In this document: one piece after another, positions 1 to 21,495 of the stretch | How the letters are laid out: each line of letters starts with the position of its first letter | Position numbering within the stretch: the stretch's first letter is position 1 | NCBI GenBank assembly: GCA_964478955.1 | Contig: CAYZNE010000002.1 | Coordinates: forward strand, 1 to 24,825 | Origin: an uncultured Methanosarcinales archaeon | GTDB taxonomy: Archaea > Nanobdellota > Nanobdellia > Woesearchaeales > CAYZNE01 | DNA length: 24,825 nt | Direction: 5' to 3' | Translations under genes and position numbers: made by a program | The notes under the pieces: model-generated | Databases searched by the model: none | The model's input: only the letters and a program-made list of their open reading frames with translations | What the model was told of the DNA's origin: nothing

Positions 1-1005
1 CTTTTAACTGGTGGTTCTCTTGCTTTAGGAGAGTCTTATATGGATAAATGGTGGGATTGCAAAGCAGTTGATGAACTTATTTATAGAATTCTAAAAGCTG
101 GATTAGATAAAAAAGTTAAAGGTTTAAAAAACCTATTTTGGCTTTTTTTAAAAGCTAAATTAACCAATAGACAAACAAAATCAAGAGCTTTTATTGTTGG
201 TGAAAAGCATTATGATATTGGTAATGATCTTTATAAGTGTATGCTTGATAAAAGAATGAATTATAGTTGTGGTTATTGGAAAAACTCAAAAACACTTGAC
301 AAAGCACAAGAAGCTAAATTAGATTTAATTTGTCAGAAACTAAAATTAAAACCTGGAATGACTGTTTTAGATATTGGTTGTGGTTGGGGTAGTTTTGCAA
401 AATTTGCAGCAGAAAAATATAAAGTTAAAGTTTTAGGTATTACTATTTCTAAAGAGCAGGTAAAGCTTGCAAGAAAATTTTGTAAAGGTTTTGATGTTGA
501 AATTAGGTTGCAGGATTATAGAAATCTTAAACACAAGTTTGATCGTGTTGTATCTATTGGGATGTTTGAACATGTAGGTTACAAGAATTATAATAAGTTT
601 TTTAAGATTGTCAATTCTTGTCTAAAAACAGATGGTTTATTTTTATTACATACTATTGGTACAAGTATTTCAACTATTTCCACTGAACCTTGGACAGATA
701 AATATATTTTTCCAAATGGAATGCTGCCTTCTGCAGTTCAGATTACGAAAACATATGAAGGCATATTTCAACTTGATGATTGGCATAGCTTTGGAGTTTA
801 TTATAATCCTACATTGATGGCTTGGTATAATAATTTTAATAACAATTGGAGCAAGCTTAAAAATAATTATGATAAAAGATTTTTTAGAATGTGGAGCTAT
901 TATTTATTAAGTTCTGCAGGTTCTTTCAGAGCACGACATAACCATGTTTGGCAGATAGTCTTATCTAAACCAGGCTCACAACTTAAATATCAAAGTGTTC
1001 GATAA
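1..1005 (+). CDS. cfa: Cyclopropane-fatty-acyl-phospholipid synthase (SAM-dependent methyltransferase), 5'-truncated by the window edge
   Basis: Frame is open from base 1 (LLTGGSLALGESYMDKWWDC, matching the Cfa GLGESYMDGWW motif), so the true start is upstream of the window, not at 40. Motifs HYDIGNDLY, YSCGYW, LDIGCGWG, QDYR, SIGMFEHVG, YIFPNG. Confidence 0.92.
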   Translation, partial: LLTGGSLALGESYMDKWWDCKAVDELIYRILKAGLDKKVKGLKNLFWLFLKAKLTNRQTKSRAFIVGEKHYDIGNDLYKCMLDKRMNYSCGYWKNSKTLDKAQEAKLDLICQKLKLKPGMTVLDIGCGWGSFAKFAAEKYKVKVLGITISKEQVKLARKFCKGFDVEIRLQDYRNLKHKFDRVVSIGMFEHVGYKNYNKFFKIVNSCLKTDGLFLLHTIGTSISTISTEPWTDKYIFPNGMLPSAVQITKTYEGIFQLDDWHSFGVYYNPTLMAWYNNFNNNWSKLKNNYDKRFFRMWSYYLLSSAGSFRARHNHVWQIVLSKPGSQLKYQSVR

Positions 1006-4337: not shown

Positions 4338-7262
4338 CTATTCAATGGTAATATTAACAGGAGTTGGTCCTGCAGATAATACATTTCCATCCCAATTAAT
4401 TTTCCACACTATTATTCTTTGATTTGATGTTTGTGATCTAAGATCTGAGAACTTTTCAAAGTGGGTGGTATATTTACCATCAAAATAAAATAGTCTTGTG
4501 AAAATTGAAGTGCTTAATTCTTTAGAACTAACTACTGCACTATTGCCAATATTAAATATTGAAATATCAACACCACTTGCTGAAGAGTCATAAGTTTTTA
4601 ATTCGTTATTGATTTCAGTTGTAAATGATCTTATACTTACCTTATCTTCACCTACTTTTGTTGTTCCTTTATATATTCCTAATACCCCTTCGCCTTCTTC
4701 TGTAAGTTTATTAAATATATATTTTTCTATAACTAAATCTGCACCATTTTGTGAACCAATTTTTACATTAATATTACAATTAACTGTGTTATTGATGTTT
4801 AAACATGATCCTGTGCCAATATATCCTGGCCAACCACTTATCCAAGTGTTAGCTTCTTTTTCAGTTTGAAGCATATTTATTTCATCAAATAGAACTTCTA
4901 TTTCAGAATCTTCATAATTATGTATTTTTGCAAGATTTGTGAATGAAGAAAAGTCTTTACTTTTTCCATTATAATAAAGATCTGCTTTTTTGAAATCCCA
5001 TAATCCAAAGTGTGCCCAAACTCCTGATTTAGAAACCATATCCCCACTAGTTATATAGTATGCCTCTGGAGGATTGCAGTGTGTTTTTTGTAATATACTA
5101 TTTACTGAACTAGTTTGAAAACCTTTACTCAAGAGAATTTGTTTAGCATCTTCTTTGTTCTCTTGCACGATCTCGTCAAGAATAGCTACGCTTAGTGCAG
5201 GATTATTTAATTCATTATTTAATAATTCAAATGCGTCATTTGATCCACAATGAAGCATTCTAAGTATTCCAACTGTTAAATCTTCATTGCTTGTTACAAG
5301 TGATTTTCCAACCCAATGGGCCATTGGCGTATTCTGAGTTACACCATCAAATGTTACTGCTCTATCTGCAACAGCTTTAAACCAGTGGCCGAAATCCCAC
5401 CAAGAAGTGATTATCGCCTTCTGATCTGATTCTGCTCTTATTTTTGTTAAAGACTCATGCCATGCATCATTCATTTGTGGGATTTCATTTAGTGAAACTA
5501 TGTGTGCAGCACCAAAATAATTTACAAAAATTATTACAACTAAAATAAGAACAATAATTTTTGTTGCAATCTTTGGTATGTCAAATAGAACATGCAACCT
5601 TTTACTTAATTTAATAAATAGTATTCCTATTGTTAACCCAATCATTAATGAGAATGGATTAATCCCCAATAAAACAAATCTTATTCCTCTTACAGAGGCA
5701 AAAATAGTTCCAGCAAAAAGAGCACCTAATAGTGCAGGAAGTAATATACTTGCTCTCTCTTTTCTCTCTTGAAATAAATTAACAAGTATTCCTATTGCAA
5801 CTGTTAGTAAAATTAAGACTATGTAAAAGTTAGGACTTATTTTTGCAATAATAGATTTGCTTGTTAAGATTAAGTATAATATCGCTGATCCAATTAAATA
5901 AGTCCATGTTCTTTTATTGTATACTTTTATTAGTGATAATGGAATTGCGAGTAATGCAAGAAATATCATTGTTTGTCCTAGACTGCTTGAAGCTAGGGCC
6001 TTTGTTATTCCTGTTAGACTCTGTGTGTTTAACTCTGCAACTGTTGTATAAACATTAGGCCACAATGTCGAATGAACTGCATTCTGTAATCCTGCAGATC
6101 GCGTTACAGATGTTAGTGTAGAAATTACTACTTTGTAACTCATAAATATAATTGTTACTAATAAATAAACTGCAAATATTATTAGATTTGATCTAATAAT
6201 TCTTGAATGAAACAATTTGATATGTTTTTTCTTTGATTCTTTAGAATCTATTAGTATTTTTATTATTTGGTAAATTATCATTCCAATTAATACTGCAATT
6301 AAGATATCGAATGAGAAGTACCATCCTCCTCCCCAAGTTTTATAGAATATCCATGTTGCAACTCCTGCTAGCGCTGCAAATAAACCTTTTTTCTGATAGC
6401 TTCTTGCAGAAAACGCTTCTATAATAAACCAAAAGATGAACAAGGGCATTGTTATACCATATGCATCTGTATCTACAAATCCTGCAGGAGTTCTACCTAA
6501 TAAGTATGGGTGTATTCCTACAAGCATTGCTGCAACAAATCCACCTACAATTCCTGCATATTTTTTAATAATAAAAAATGCAGGTATAAGCCCTAATAAT
6601 ATGATTAGTGCAGGAATAAGATATATTGAGTTTAATAAGGGTGTTCCTGGTTTGAAAAAGTTAGAGATTTTATATGTCCAGAAAAGAATTAATGTGTGTC
6701 CATCAAGTGTCATTTCTCTTCCTTTTGGCGCAACTTCATGTGTGTTCCAGCATACGTCTTCTTTTATCTCATCGCAAACTGTTCCATCTTCAATTAAGTT
6801 TGTTGCTTTTAGAGAATAATAATAAGGATCAATTGCAAGCAGGTAAGTTTGATTATTTTCATCTTGAAAATCTTCCCTGTATTGTGCTGCCAAACTTTTT
6901 TGAGATGATTCTATATTATTTTTTTCTGTTTGATAAACTTCTGCAAATCGTTTATTTATGAGATCTTCTTTATTTACTTCTGGAAGGTTAGGATATTCTG
7001 AGTCTACTTGCGTTTTTATTTGTGATTTATAATAACTAATAACTGAGCTTTCTGCCCAGTCTTCTGTTTTAGGTAGTGTTTCAGTGTATGTTCTAAAGTA
7101 AATTGAACAAATCATTGTAACTAAAATTAAGAGTATTATAAGGGTAGTTTTGTTGAATATTTTTTTGTTAGAAAAAAAGTCTTTGGCCTTAATACCAAAT
7201 TCTTTTATATTAAGATTTGTTTCTATAGTATCTTCAGTATCATGTTTTTTGTCTTCATCCAT
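4338..7262 (-). CDS. aglB: Oligosaccharyltransferase AglB (STT3 family)
   Basis: DPYY, DTD, TVAEL, many TM helices, signature SWWDFGHW, downstream DMVSK (DK motif). Confidence 0.95.
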   Translation of the reverse strand: MDEDKKHDTEDTIETNLNIKEFGIKAKDFFSNKKIFNKTTLIILLILVTMICSIYFRTYTETLPKTEDWAESSVISYYKSQIKTQVDSEYPNLPEVNKEDLINKRFAEVYQTEKNNIESSQKSLAAQYREDFQDENNQTYLLAIDPYYYSLKATNLIEDGTVCDEIKEDVCWNTHEVAPKGREMTLDGHTLILFWTYKISNFFKPGTPLLNSIYLIPALIILLGLIPAFFIIKKYAGIVGGFVAAMLVGIHPYLLGRTPAGFVDTDAYGITMPLFIFWFIIEAFSARSYQKKGLFAALAGVATWIFYKTWGGGWYFSFDILIAVLIGMIIYQIIKILIDSKESKKKHIKLFHSRIIRSNLIIFAVYLLVTIIFMSYKVVISTLTSVTRSAGLQNAVHSTLWPNVYTTVAELNTQSLTGITKALASSSLGQTMIFLALLAIPLSLIKVYNKRTWTYLIGSAILYLILTSKSIIAKISPNFYIVLILLTVAIGILVNLFQERKERASILLPALLGALFAGTIFASVRGIRFVLLGINPFSLMIGLTIGILFIKLSKRLHVLFDIPKIATKIIVLILVVIIFVNYFGAAHIVSLNEIPQMNDAWHESLTKIRAESDQKAIITSWWDFGHWFKAVADRAVTFDGVTQNTPMAHWVGKSLVTSNEDLTVGILRMLHCGSNDAFELLNNELNNPALSVAILDEIVQENKEDAKQILLSKGFQTSSVNSILQKTHCNPPEAYYITSGDMVSKSGVWAHFGLWDFKKADLYYNGKSKDFSSFTNLAKIHNYEDSEIEVLFDEINMLQTEKEANTWISGWPGYIGTGSCLNINNTVNCNINVKIGSQNGADLVIEKYIFNKLTEEGEGVLGIYKGTTKVGEDKVSIRSFTTEINNELKTYDSSASGVDISIFNIGNSAVVSSKELSTSIFTRLFYFDGKYTTHFEKFSDLRSQTSNQRIIVWKINWDGNVLSAGPTPVNITIE

Positions 7263-9479: not shown

Positions 9480-9589
9480 GAGTCCGTAGCTTAGTCCGGT
9501 GGAGCGCTGGTCTTATATGGCCAAATCTCGTTTTAGAGGTTTTGTTCTAAGCTAGCCAGTGGTCGGGGGTTCAAATCCCCTCGGACTCA
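9480..9589 (+). tRNA. tRNA-Ile(UAU) with 36-nt intron (9518-9553) at canonical 37/38
   Basis: Acceptor GAGTCCG/CGGACTC; anticodon stem CTGGT/GCCAG; spliced loop CT-TAT-AA. BHB motif: central helix CTTA/TAAG with two 3-nt bulges (TAT, CTA). Body almost identical to tRNA-Ile(GAU) at 11949. Confidence 0.92.
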
Positions 9590-9717
9590 TTTTTTTTAAT
9601 GAGTTTGTTTTTGGGGTTTGAACTTGTTCCTTTGGTGCAGGAAATCTTTATTTTCCGCACAAATCCCCTCGGACTCATTTTTTTTAATGAGTTTGTTTTT
9701 GGGGTTTGAACTTGTTC
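9572..9717 (+). repeat. Perfect 58-bp direct repeat x2 (9572-9629, 9660-9717) starting in the tRNA T-loop
   Basis: CAAATCCCCTCGGACTCA-T8-AATGAGTTTGTTTTTGGGGTTTGAACTTGTTC occurs twice, period 88. Confidence 0.93.
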
Positions 9718-9795: not shown

Positions 9796-9811
9796 AATCC
9801 CCTCGGACTCA
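9796..9811 (+). repeat. Third copy of the tRNA-Ile 3' end (att-like)
   Basis: AATCCCCTCGGACTCA, identical to 9574-9589. Confidence 0.9.
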
Positions 9812-9890
9812 CTTCCTTTTCTCAGGCATTTGAAAATAAGATATTTAATCAGAAAATATTATATAGTAAGACTTCTCAGTTAAGTAGTAT

Positions 9891-11881: not shown

Positions 11882-11948
11882 AAACTCTCGTAACTAATTG
11901 GATTAAACTTCTATTTAAAAGCTTTTTGAAATTAGTAGAATTATAGAA

Positions 11949-12022
11949 TGAGTCCGAGGGGATTTGAACCCCCGACCACTCGATTATCAGTCGAGCACTC
12001 CACCGGACTAAGCTACGGACTC
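11949..12022 (-). tRNA. tRNA-Ile(GAU)
   Basis: Acceptor GAGTCCG/CGGACTC, anticodon arm CTCGA-CTGATAA-TCGAG, T-loop TTCAAAT. Confidence 0.96.
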
Positions 12023-12023
12023 A

Positions 12024-12147: not shown

Positions 12148-14211
12148 TTATTCAAAAACACTACTTATAATTTCTTCAGCATTAAACTTCTTTAAATCTT
12201 TATATTCTTGCCCTGTTGTTATGAATAATATTGGTTTTTCAGTAACATGACTTATTGAGATTGCTGCACCACCTTTCTCATCAATGTCTGCTTTTGTTAG
12301 AATGATTCCATCAATACCAACTGATTTATTGAATTCTTTTGCCTGTTCAACACAATCATTACCAGTAATACTTTCCCCAATAAAGATTTTCATATTTGGA
12401 TTTACTACTCTAATAACTTTTTCAAGCTCTTGCATTAAATTAGAGTTGCTATGTAATCTTCCGGCAGTATCTATCAAAACCACATCTACTGATTTTGATT
12501 TTGCATGTTCTATTGTATCATATGCGACTGCAGCAGGGTCTGCACCATAGTCATGCTTGATTAACTTAGTATTAAGATTGTTTGTGTGTTCTTCTATTTG
12601 TTGGATTGCTGCAGCTCTAAATGTGTCTGATGCTGCAACCACGCATGTTAAGTTATTGTCTTGGAAATATTTTATTAATTTTCCAATTGTTGTTGTTTTC
12701 CCTGAGCCATTAACCCCAAGCATTAATATTTTGTAAGGCTTTTCTGAAGTTTTTATTTTTTCAATTAAGTCTATTGGTTCATAACCAAACAGAGACTCTA
12801 TTGTTTGTCTTAAATTGTTCAGGATTATTTCATCTATAGATCTTCTTGTTACCTTTGTGTTCTCTAGTTCTTCTTTAAGATTGAATTTTATTTTTTCAAT
12901 AACTTCTACTGCAACATTATTTTCTAGAAGTGCAACTTCAAGGTCCCAGAATAATTCATCAAATTTCTCATCTGTAATATTTAATTTTATTATCTTTTCT
13001 GACAGTTTTTTGAAGATTCCCTTTTTCTTTTGTGTTGGATCAACAAGTTTTTCTTTTTTATCTTCCTTTGCTTCTTTAACATGAACTTCTTCTTGTATGT
13101 GGGGTTTTTCAAGAGCAGGAAAGTCTTCTTTTTTTAGTAAATCTTTTTTCTTTTCAATGTGTTTTTCTACTTTCTGAGTTATTTTGTATTCCCAACCTGG
13201 TTGCCATGCTTTTCTTAATCTCCAATCTTCTGCTAGTGCTTGTGTCCAAGTTTTATTATTTAGAAGAACTTCTATTGCTAGTTGAGAATATCTGTGTGCG
13301 GCAATAGCTATGTGTTTTCCTTTGTATTTTTTATATAAGTCATTAAGAAATTTTCTTATTCTTGCAGTTACCTCGTTGTAACTTTCGCCTTTTGGATAAT
13401 TTTCATATATAGGATTATGATCTTTTTTGAATTCATTAAGTTTTGACTTATGTTGACCATTTAGTTTTCCATAATCACATTCTCTTAATCTTTTATCAAC
13501 AATTGTTTCTTTATCTGGCCAAGTTATATTTGCAGAATCAATTGCTCTTTTTAGATCTGAAGTGAATATTTTATCAAAATCATATTTTGTTTGATTAATT
13601 AATTCTTCAGATTGAGTTATTCCTAGTGCAGATAGTTCTGTTGAGTTTTGCCCCGTACATACACCTGCTTCATTATCTTTTGTTGTTCCGTGAACAAAAT
13701 AAGTTATATGCACTTCGTTTTCTGGAACTTGTTTTTTAATTTTAGTTGTTTCTTTAATTTCTTCAATTATGGGTTTTGGAGCTTCTTCAATAACTTCTTC
13801 CTTTGACTTTTCCTTTGGCTCTTCAATAACTGGTTCTTCTTTAATCTCTTCAACCTTTTCCTCTACTTCTGGTTCGGGAACAGGAACTTCTTCAACAATT
13901 TTTTTTATTATTTCCTTTGGCTCTTCAATCACGGGTTTTTCTTCAACCTTCTCTTCTTTAACTGCATCTTCAGCGTTAATCTTTGCTTGCTCTTCTGCAA
14001 TCTCTTCCTCAATAGATTTAATTTCTTCTGGTTGTTCCTCTTTTTTCTTTTTAGAAAATACTTTTTTGAAAAACCCCTTTTTCTCTTTTTCCAATTCTTG
14101 TTTTTCTTCTTCACTAATTTGATCTTCAGAAATAGTTTTAGCGTCTTCTACTATTTCCTCAGCTATTTTTTCTGAGGTTTCTTTTATTTTCTTTTTTAGG
14201 AAGCCAAACAT
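12148..14211 (-). CDS. ftsY: SRP receptor FtsY with acidic N-terminal region containing an inserted histidine-phosphatase domain
   Basis: C-terminal NG GTPase: GVNGSGKTT, DTFRAAA, DTAGR, TKAD, GGA. Residues ~167-344 carry FVHGTT, TSDLKRA, RLRECDYG, PKGES, IAAH. Confidence 0.93.
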   Translation of the reverse strand: MFGFLKKKIKETSEKIAEEIVEDAKTISEDQISEEEKQELEKEKKGFFKKVFSKKKKEEQPEEIKSIEEEIAEEQAKINAEDAVKEEKVEEKPVIEEPKEIIKKIVEEVPVPEPEVEEKVEEIKEEPVIEEPKEKSKEEVIEEAPKPIIEEIKETTKIKKQVPENEVHITYFVHGTTKDNEAGVCTGQNSTELSALGITQSEELINQTKYDFDKIFTSDLKRAIDSANITWPDKETIVDKRLRECDYGKLNGQHKSKLNEFKKDHNPIYENYPKGESYNEVTARIRKFLNDLYKKYKGKHIAIAAHRYSQLAIEVLLNNKTWTQALAEDWRLRKAWQPGWEYKITQKVEKHIEKKKDLLKKEDFPALEKPHIQEEVHVKEAKEDKKEKLVDPTQKKKGIFKKLSEKIIKLNITDEKFDELFWDLEVALLENNVAVEVIEKIKFNLKEELENTKVTRRSIDEIILNNLRQTIESLFGYEPIDLIEKIKTSEKPYKILMLGVNGSGKTTTIGKLIKYFQDNNLTCVVAASDTFRAAAIQQIEEHTNNLNTKLIKHDYGADPAAVAYDTIEHAKSKSVDVVLIDTAGRLHSNSNLMQELEKVIRVVNPNMKIFIGESITGNDCVEQAKEFNKSVGIDGIILTKADIDEKGGAAISISHVTEKPILFITTGQEYKDLKKFNAEEIISSVFE

Positions 14212-14212
14212 T

Positions 14213-14578
14213 TTAATCTTTTAATTTTTTTAAATCATTTAATTCAGTTGTTACTATGTCTCGATTTTCTTTTGTTCTTTCAATCTGTTGTAGAATTAAA
14301 TCTTTTGCTTTATCTACTGACATCTCAGTTACTATTCCATCAGTACCTATGTTTACTAGGAATTTTGAGCTGTCTGTAATCTTTGCTTTAAAGAACATTC
14401 CGTTGACGATTGGAACAAGCATTTCTTTTCCTTTTTTCTCTTTGCCAAATTCATTTATTGTTTCTTTAATAATTTCTAAATTTTGTGATTGTAATTCCAT
14501 ATCTTGTAGATATTTCTCAAGCATTTCTATGTTCTGTTGCATTCTAAACATTTCTTCATAATCTATTTGGGATTTCAT
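14213..14578 (-). CDS. pfdA: Prefoldin alpha subunit
   Basis: Coiled coils flanking the beta hairpins MLVPIVNGMFFKAKI..KFLVNIG; located between aIF6 and ftsY. Confidence 0.88.
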   Translation of the reverse strand: MKSQIDYEEMFRMQQNIEMLEKYLQDMELQSQNLEIIKETINEFGKEKKGKEMLVPIVNGMFFKAKITDSSKFLVNIGTDGIVTEMSVDKAKDLILQQIERTKENRDIVTTELNDLKKLKD

Positions 14579-21223: not shown

Positions 21224-21495
21224 GTAGGTAAGTAGCTAACTTTCGCTCTTAGAGTGAGGAAAGTCTGCCCACCATAAAAGGTCAGCACATATGTGTGTCT
21301 TGAAAAGGACGGCAACCACTCAGAAACGGTACCTCTTGAGTGCAGAATGATGGATTAAATCCTGACATTGCTTAAGGATGGTTGAAACGGTGAGCCCTGA
21401 CTGGTGCAAGTTGTATAACGCTTAGTAGAATGTTAGCAAAGTTCATCCAAGCTTTGGCTTTGGGACTTACAGAAGGTAGCTTATCGCTTGCCTAC
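21224..21495 (+). ncRNA. rnpB: RNase P RNA (archaeal, short)
   Basis: P1 GTAGGTAAG/CTTGCCTAC, GAGGAAAGTC, AGAAAC, TGAAAC, GGTGCAAG, TAGAATG, ACAGAAGGTAGCTTA; P4 CTGCC/GGTAG; TATA-like TTTAAAAA about 22 nt upstream. Confidence 0.93.

Follow-up and report, generated by a model that had tools for sequence, protein, structure and literature searches.

An FtsY with a histidine phosphatase in its A region

We analyzed a stretch of 24,825 nucleotides from contig CAYZNE010000002.1 (assembly GCA_964478955.1, from an uncultured archaeon that GTDB places in the Woesearchaeales); we refer to the whole stretch as the window. On its minus strand lies a gene for FtsY, which is the signal recognition particle (SRP) receptor; the encoded protein has a histidine phosphatase domain within its A region, ahead of the NG domain (Table 1). 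Judging from its sequence, this open reading frame (ORF) is a genuine FtsY. It scores 298.2 bits against the NCBIfam equivalog for ftsY (TIGR00064, cutoff 260.7) over amino acids 418-685; SRP54_N (PF02881) and the SRP54 GTPase domain (PF00448, E = 8e-71) match at amino acids 399-461 and 493-686; and the GTPase motifs G1 to G4 are present (GVNGSGKTT at 499, DTFRAAA at 529, DTAGR at 581, and TKAD at 639). The phosphatase family His_Phos_1 (PF00300) matches amino acids 174-307 with E = 1.1e-25 and 90.9 bits, versus a gathering score of 21.7. The phosphatase, SRP54_N, and GTPase domains share one uninterrupted reading frame. The original prediction for this DNA had proposed an in-frame fusion with the phosphatase at residues 167-344, and the Pfam domains and TIGR00064 bear this out. 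These residues correspond exactly to positions 13180-13713, and 13681-13713 (minus strand) translates as VHITYFVHGTT. The plus strand has ORFs here too (e.g., 13769-14122 and 12815-13084), but these are a Ser/Phe-rich mirror of the Glu/Lys-rich sense strand.

Apart from the phosphatase, the protein looks like other members of TIGR00064, such as FtsY from E. coli or Haloferax volcanii: it has a complete NG domain with all of the GTPase motifs, an acidic disordered A region, and N-terminal and A/N-junction motifs of the lipid-binding type, and the gene is paired with prefoldin, as in other archaea. It differs in that its A region holds a folded enzyme domain of 178 amino acids. The A regions that have been described are acidic, variable, or absent, and no catalytic domain has been reported in them (PMC2905702).

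The basic-aromatic motifs place the insertion within the A region, as originally proposed: MFGFLKKK (amino acids 1-8) and KKGFFKK (44-50) precede the phosphatase, and KKKGIFKK (395-402) follows it. The KKGFF motifs here are similar to the two lipid-binding helices of E. coli FtsY, KKRGFFSWL (N terminus) and EGFFARLKR (A/N junction). MFGFLKKKIK, with which the window's FtsY begins, appears to correspond to the lipid-binding helix that bacterial FtsY has at its N terminus. Both this motif and KKKGIFKKLSEKI at the A/N junction are conserved putative lipid-binding motifs; the start MF..LK is found in 89 of 102 fused homologues, and the junction motif is conserved in fused and unfused relatives alike. 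The role of the two helices in E. coli, including the A-N junction helix to which PTQKKKGIFKKLSEK would be analogous, has been described (PMC2928010).

A model of the full-length protein (from a 45-sequence alignment) has two confident modules, at amino acids ~160-345 and ~410-687, and a predicted local distance difference test score (pLDDT) under 50 across amino acids 81-153 and 357-407. No confident packing between the domains was predicted, and the overall predicted template modelling score (pTM) was just 0.48, so the phosphatase and the NG domain are probably arranged like beads on a string.

Table 1. Coordinates of the FtsY gene and its parts, of other features of the window, and of related genes at other loci
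Feature	Locus	Position	Strand	Evidence
ftsY coding sequence, 687 amino acids + stop: A region with inserted phosphatase, then NG	window	12148..14211	-	ORF list, Pfam, TIGR00064
N-terminal basic-aromatic motif MFGFLKKKIK, amino acids 1-10	window	14182..14211	-	sequence; predicted helical
Second basic-aromatic motif KKGFFKKVFSKKKK, amino acids 44-57	window	14041..14082	-	sequence; kept in close relatives
Acidic disordered linker, amino acids 58-166	window	13714..14040	-	composition (40 D+E per 109 residues); low pLDDT
Histidine phosphatase (branch 1) domain, "VHG" subfamily (see text), amino acids 167-344 (178 amino acids)	window	13180..13713	-	Pfam, AlphaFold2, Foldseek
Second disordered linker, amino acids 345-391	window	13039..13179	-	low pLDDT; weak identity to P0122
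A/N-junction motif of the membrane-targeting type PTQKKKGIFKKLSEK, amino acids 392-406	window	12994..13038	-	sequence
NG domain, amino acids 399-687	window	12151..13017	-	Pfam, TIGR00064; pLDDT mostly >85
Prefoldin subunit (PF02996), immediately upstream of ftsY	window	14213..14578	-	Pfam
Archaeal RNase P RNA	window	21224-21495	+	Rfam (RF00373, 143 bits)
CMAS (cyclopropane/mycolic-acid synthase methyltransferase family)	window	40-1005	+	E = 1e-93
tRNA, 110 nt, anticodon region CTTATA	window	9480-9589	+	Rfam; missed by ARAGORN
VHG phosphatase + archaeal-type glycyl-tRNA synthetase	L093	2342-4633	+	TIGR00389, 482 bits
VHG phosphatase + class II aminoacyl-tRNA synthetase core	L098	1054-2735	+	
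VHG phosphatase + putative class II aminoacyl-tRNA synthetase: N-terminal element and domain position as in the other synthetase fusions	L095	1645-2692	+	
VHG phosphatase + archaeal ribosomal protein uL22	L091	2028-3083	+	
P0001, without NG: FtsY-like start MFGFLKEKLK, linker, phosphatase, KKGFF motif, stop	L001	2759-3631	+	

The fusion is real, it recurs, and it is under purifying selection. We are nearly certain that it was not a chimeric assembly, a missed stop codon, or a frameshift that joined a phosphatase gene to ftsY. The exact protein (P0385) is found on eight public contigs (from NCBI, JGI, ENA, Logan, GEM, and MetaClust). A separately deposited ENA contig (L074, sample ERZ27316110) differs from the window at 2 nucleotides in 7.5 kb; its protein has a single change (P392L) and is unbroken across both domain junctions. 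Also, a simple read-through from one gene into another would not place the N-terminal motif of FtsY ahead of the phosphatase. We found no support for an artefact: the sole case that looked split is P0001, which is a separate gene without NG (Table 1). We considered whether P0001 was a fusion that had been interrupted by a stop codon, but its downstream ORF encodes a glycosyltransferase.

When we searched with the full-length protein, 99 of the 120 best cluster representatives had the fused architecture, and in every one of these the phosphatase is N-terminal of NG. These proteins come from metagenome-assembled genomes that are labelled as Woesearchaeota, Nanoarchaeota, or Aenigmatarchaeota. 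Scanning metagenome contigs with the phosphatase family gave 80 loci, and the phosphatase is fused to the NG domain of FtsY in 10 of them; a prefoldin gene is directly upstream (position -1) in 8 of these 10 loci, as in the window. A scan of GTDB genomes with the full protein, which relied on peptide patterns that were over-specific, gave 72 loci with no phosphatase; these were unfused relatives and bacterial FtsY only.

At 0.303, the GC content of the insert matches the values for NG and the window (0.307 and 0.309), so the phosphatase is not a recent insertion of foreign DNA. P0122 is the nearest fused relative; aligned with it, the phosphatase shows 68% identity without gaps and NG shows 78-80%, while the first and second linkers reach just 34% and 45%. 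The phosphatase domain has therefore been under purifying selection in this lineage.

As originally suspected, the fusion seems to be undescribed: our literature search found no description of an FtsY-phosphatase fusion or of the VHG family discussed below, and no characterized VHG member. A paper on the genomics of Woesearchaeota merely lists ftsY. Whether the architecture was already widely annotated has a mixed answer. Fused sequences are abundant in public databases and the matches to both Pfam domains are precomputed, but every source describes the protein as plain FtsY. For example, MBS3152472.1, PIN74004.1, MFA6462272.1, and MFH1228988.1 are named only "signal recognition particle-docking protein FtsY". 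What is new is the recognition and interpretation of the architecture, as the sequences and their Pfam matches were already public in quantity.

The inserted domain and its subfamily

By its profile match and its predicted fold, the inserted domain is a branch 1 histidine phosphatase. The AlphaFold2 model of this domain (from a 61-sequence alignment) has pLDDT 96.1 and pTM 0.91. Foldseek matched the model to the phosphoserine phosphatase PspA (4ij5), PhoE (1h2e), the alpha-ribazole phosphatase CobC (6e4b/6nru), HFP from the riboflavin pathway (9mmh), GpgP (Rv2419c, 4pz9), and cofactor-dependent phosphoglycerate mutases (dPGMs) in the PDB (template modelling scores 0.72-0.78, probability 1.00, 20-27% identity, root-mean-square deviation 2-3 Å over ~170 columns). 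In its modelled fold, the domain thus resembles small-molecule phosphomonoesterases most closely. It shares the fold of PspA, PhoE, CobC, HFP, and GpgP as well as their catalytic His, second Arg, Glu, and second His. It differs from them in its low identity, in having Val instead of the Arg of the RHG motif, in being shorter, and in a distinctive Trp/Arg-rich motif near the C terminus. Neither the window's protein nor the free-standing homologues reach the cutoff of any NCBIfam equivalog: the window's protein scores 66.6 bits for CobC (cutoff 162.9), 45.2 for PspA (cutoff 350), 51.2 for archaeal dPGM (cutoff 225), and 32.6 for GpmB (cutoff 261).

A search with the domain alone found over 1,400 relatives. 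The best 120 of these all match PF00300 only; they are 52-59% identical to the query, and most are free-standing proteins of ~181 amino acids. The named ones are from bacteria of the candidate phyla radiation (CPR), namely Saccharibacteria (P0018), Nomurabacteria (P0024), and the "Patescibacteria group", or from the DPANN archaea (Nanoarchaeota, such as P0029, and Aenigmarchaeota). P0029, P0018, and P0024 align over the whole domain; unlike the window's protein, they have a single domain, no flanking KKGFF motifs, and no NG. The free-standing homologues are annotated generically, as histidine phosphatase family, PhoE, alpha-ribazole phosphatase, or phosphoglycerate mutase.

We call these proteins the VHG subfamily, which is a definition of ours and not a curated family. 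Its signature is ITYF[VA]HGTTxDNE plus DWRxxKxWxPGWxY at the C-terminal end, within ~180 amino acids, and the window's domain matches it. The window's domain and the free-standing homologues also share SDLKRA, RLRECxYG, GES, and AIVAH, and the window's domain retains all 40 of the invariant columns of our alignment (A1). From these sequences, the VHG phosphatases appear to be a large uncharacterized subfamily found in the CPR bacteria and the DPANN archaea. Among solved structures we noticed no protein of the VHG type, and the three that aligned best have RHG or RHA.

The motifs that had been read from the translation are all there (FVHG at 172, SDLKRA at 218, RLRECDYG at 241, GES at 275, and AAH with His306), and both catalytic histidines are kept. 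To quantify conservation, we used 99 fused and 120 free-standing sequences (219 in total). His174 (codon 13690-13692), which aligns with the nucleophilic His of RHG, is invariant in all 219, as are Asn180, Glu244, and His306. All 120 free-standing sequences have Arg222, as do 98 of the 99 fused ones. Arg331, which lies within DWRxxKxWxPGWxY, is invariant and is specific to the subfamily. We also note that Cys245 (of RLREC) is kept in 116 of the 120 free-standing proteins and in 66 of the 99 fused ones.

In alignments to solved proteins of the phosphoglycerate mutase family, Val173 sits opposite the Arg of RHG/RHA. So the substitution that was originally pointed out is correct, but it is not a peculiarity of this gene: this position is Val, Ala, or Ile in all 99 fused sequences and Val or Ala in all 120 free-standing ones. 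Because the signature is seen in all of the best 120 relatives, we consider Val173 to be a mark of the subfamily and not a lesion in the window's gene, and we rejected the idea that it marks a decaying domain.

It could still be that the entire subfamily has lost catalysis and that the fold now serves as a sensor of a phospho-ligand, as an interaction module, or as a spacer in the A region. The replacement of this Arg in every member fits with this, as does the failure of any family member to pass an equivalog cutoff, and P0122 has an additional change in the motif, from Gly to Ser. However, there is little or no variation at His174, Asn180, Arg222, Glu244, and His306, which is the pattern that is typical of active enzymes, and the invariant Arg331 might take the place of the lost Arg. 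A whole family of stand-alone pseudoenzymes of ~181 amino acids would also be surprising. Overall, we think that a dead or repurposed domain is quite unlikely.

Relatives, fusion partners, and gene neighborhoods

The nearest relatives of the window's FtsY have NG domains that are 82-91% identical and first 57 residues that are nearly identical, yet they have no phosphatase. In L002, which is syntenic with the window (80-88% nucleotide identity on both flanks), 287 bp (6258-6544) replace the 818 bp at 13134-13951 of the window, so the two genes differ by a clean in-frame indel that spans the phosphatase. The unfused relatives bear an additional KEKRILGIFKKKHKEE motif in the replaced segment of the A region. 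L002 and L003 are the two closest genomes in GTDB; the FtsY, the ~31% GC, and the nearest named homologues are suggestive of Woesearchaeota-like DPANN archaea.

More broadly, the presence or absence of the phosphatase requires ~29 parsimony changes on a neighbor-joining tree of 256 NG domains, and the fused phosphatase domains are not monophyletic on a neighbor-joining tree of phosphatase domains. Distances between NG domains and between phosphatase domains are weakly correlated (r = 0.28, Mantel p ~ 0.001). As these are neighbor-joining trees of saturated data, they call for caution, and the fusion may have arisen once or several times.

Other small hydrolases are found in the A regions of FtsY proteins from DPANN archaea. 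P0195, P0204, and P0215 have a NUDIX domain, and P0206, P0207, P0212, P0217, and P0225 have a Ser_hydrolase (PF06821, YdeN/RBBP9-type) or alpha/beta hydrolase domain. Because the NUDIX or serine hydrolase domain may lie on either side of the phosphatase, these would be separate insertion events. These architectures suggest that small hydrolases have been inserted into the A region repeatedly. The same types of genes are the only recurrent neighbors of the free-standing phosphatases (NUDIX at ~5 loci and serine or alpha/beta hydrolases at ~7 loci); the remaining neighborhoods are diverse, with purine genes seen once or twice. NUDIX enzymes release phosphomonoesters, so a reaction by NUDIX that is followed by the phosphatase would be reasonable. 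A CPR genome (L075) has tandem His_Phos_1 genes, at 5360-5944 (194 amino acids) and 6001-6546 (181 amino acids, of the VHG type), with NUDIX and HAD (haloacid dehalogenase) hydrolase genes on both sides, within 6 kb. At two other CPR loci (L081 and L082, ~5001-5549), the free-standing phosphatase is beside AhpC or thioredoxin and thioredoxin reductase.

The VHG phosphatase is also fused to proteins of translation, namely glycyl-tRNA synthetase (GlyRS), the core of a class II aminoacyl-tRNA synthetase, and ribosomal protein uL22 (Table 1). As a side observation, an element of ~50 amino acids (M-x-F-I-V-K-K-x-I-x-G-x-x-Y-Y-Y-L...) precedes the phosphatase in P0005 (amino acids 1-50), L093, L095, and L098; no Pfam family matched this element in L093 or L098, the fusion ORFs that the scan covered. 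A free-standing phosphatase adjoins an EMC3/YidC-like insertase, near prefoldin, at a single locus from Nanoarchaeota (L079, 4460-6243), and another lies between methionine aminopeptidase (MetAP) and a GNAT (GCN5-related N-acetyltransferase) gene at a single locus from Aenigmarchaeota (L080, 1776-3700).

These contexts bear on the original suggestion that the enzyme is coupled to the Sec translocon and acts during targeting. If so, the phosphatase would be part of the SRP cycle or would regulate it, by acting on a phospho-substrate at the interface of ribosome, translocon, and membrane. The substrate might be a lipid head-group phosphate (such as one in the pathway to the FtsY-activating anionic lipids), an inhibitory derivative of a guanine nucleotide, or a phosphoprotein. 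Lipid-binding-type motifs bracket the domain, which would put it at the membrane surface; the fusion has been retained in 99 database clusters of divergent FtsY; and the fusions to uL22 (an exit-tunnel protein) and GlyRS, along with the genes by the insertase and prefoldin and by MetAP and GNAT, are what such coupling would lead us to expect. It is also known that FtsY is activated by anionic lipids (PMC2928010), and bacterial SRP GTPases are reported to be inhibited by (p)ppGpp (PMC8881573).

However, the domain is absent from close syntenic relatives and is patchily distributed on the NG tree. Most members of the family are soluble, free-standing proteins of CPR bacteria with unrelated neighbors, and the phosphatase is also found without NG (P0001). 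The two modules look independent in the model, with no packing predicted between them. The nearest folds are those of small-molecule phosphatases, not of SixA-type or other protein phosphatases. The insertase and MetAP contexts were each seen just once, and small genomes are rich in translation genes anyway; outside of FtsY, the domain is also fused to GlyRS and uL22. We conclude that a role in targeting is not supported and that coupling to the SRP cycle is possible but unlikely.

As for the rest of the window, the stop codon of the prefoldin gene is one base from the ATG of ftsY, so the two genes are probably co-transcribed. The window also encodes aIF6, FttA/aCPSF1, a proteasome beta subunit, AglB/STT3, GyrA, HerA, and RNase P RNA, and has no second copy of the phosphatase within its 24,825 nucleotides. 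The RNase P RNA, being of the archaeal type, confirms that the DNA is archaeal. The CMAS gene is of a type of lipid-modifying enzyme that is usually discussed for bacterial ester lipids, and here it is in an archaeal genome. The tRNA at 9480-9589 presumably contains an intron, as it matches Rfam but was not called by ARAGORN. When inverted, its two ends match tRNA-Ile(GAU) at 11948-12023 (89% and 100%). Nearby is a perfect direct repeat of 58 nt (9572-9629 and 9660-9717, with a third partial copy at 9796-9819); each copy holds the 3' end of this tRNA and then a run of T. The alignment of L074 to the window breaks between the repeat copies, at 9630-9659. The direct repeats may be integration scars or the result of repeat slippage.

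What the phosphatase might do

We lean towards the view that the insert is an autonomous and probably active small-molecule phosphatase, which is held at the membrane on a permissive arm of FtsY and is not required for targeting. The protein would be an ordinary SRP receptor whose disordered and dispensable A region has served as a landing pad for a complete phosphatase. The A regions of archaea are "strikingly diverse or absent" and the A region is dispensable in Haloferax (PMC2905702); in E. coli, NG+1 is sufficient (PMC2928010). Given this, and given the close syntenic relatives that lack the phosphatase, we do not think that it is needed for targeting.

The NG part would work as a normal SRP-receptor GTPase, and the phosphatase would perform the same chemistry as its free-standing homologues: transfer of the phosphoryl group from a small phosphomonoester to His174, followed by hydrolysis. 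Arg331 might substitute for the missing arginine of RHG. The putative lipid-binding helices of the A region would keep the phosphatase at the membrane, on its cytoplasmic side, and the phosphatase would be co-expressed with FtsY. This would be coupling by location and expression, without making the phosphatase an integral part of targeting. Given its repeated pairing with NUDIX domains and genes, the substrate may be a phosphomonoester that is freed when NUDIX hydrolyzes a nucleoside-diphosphate-X compound.

There is a precedent for such a fusion. In the bifunctional RNase H/CobC-like acid phosphatase (NF005567; Rv2228c of Mycobacterium tuberculosis), a branch 1 phosphatase is fused to an unrelated housekeeping protein, and the two activities are thought to be independent. 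That protein differs in its partner, in the order of its domains, and in having the canonical RHG, and the window's protein scores just 49 bits against its cutoff of 326. In the eukaryotic SR-alpha, the same NG core is joined to a different folded N-terminal module that replaces the A region, so the N-terminal arm of FtsY seems to be evolutionarily exchangeable. The module of SR-alpha (SRX) is non-catalytic and binds SR-beta, whereas the module in the window has the fold of an enzyme.

Several observations weigh against an active enzyme that is a passenger on FtsY. To our knowledge, the canonical arginine of RHG is part of the phosphate pocket in all characterized members of the superfamily; as it is missing here, the activity or the type of substrate could be unusual. 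That the VHG subfamily has phosphatase activity is predicted from sequence and fold, and is probable rather than certain. Also, FtsY proteins have kept the fusion even where their sequences have diverged by up to ~55%, with the phosphatase always behind the N-terminal motif of the lipid-binding type and never at an end, and this retention and fixed position hint at more than a neutral passenger. Finally, the partners (uL22 and GlyRS) and some neighbors (YidC/EMC3-like, MetAP, and GNAT) are factors for translation or for nascent chains, which might reflect a functional connection to co-translational processes.

A broader version of our proposal is that the arm of the SRP receptor in DPANN archaea is a scaffold at the membrane surface for a short pathway of hydrolases, which runs from NUDIX to the VHG phosphatase and sometimes includes a YdeN/RBBP9-like serine hydrolase, and that the VHG enzymes are also a new mechanistic branch of their superfamily in which Arg331 replaces the arginine of RHG. 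We consider this combination to be quite unlikely. If it is true, then these host-dependent cells would process phosphoesters derived from nucleotides, cofactors, or lipids right by the membrane or translocon. Precursors from the host might be scavenged or remodelled in this way, or the nucleotides or anionic lipids that regulate the SRP GTPases might be controlled locally.

Few proteins are as conserved or as well studied as FtsY, whose A region is seen as a variable and non-catalytic tether to the membrane. Here, a clade of ultra-small archaea builds enzymes into this tether: a histidine phosphatase and sometimes a NUDIX or serine hydrolase. The fusion also exposes a large family of phosphatases in CPR bacteria and DPANN archaea that departs from the supposedly invariant RHG and that is repeatedly fused, to FtsY, GlyRS, and uL22. 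This family bears on how essential the arginine of RHG is to the chemistry of the superfamily, and knowing its substrate could bring to light a reaction, for housekeeping or for scavenging, that is specific to host-dependent organisms. Even if the phosphatase is a mere passenger, this case documents how essential proteins in compact genomes can host additional domains on their disordered arms.

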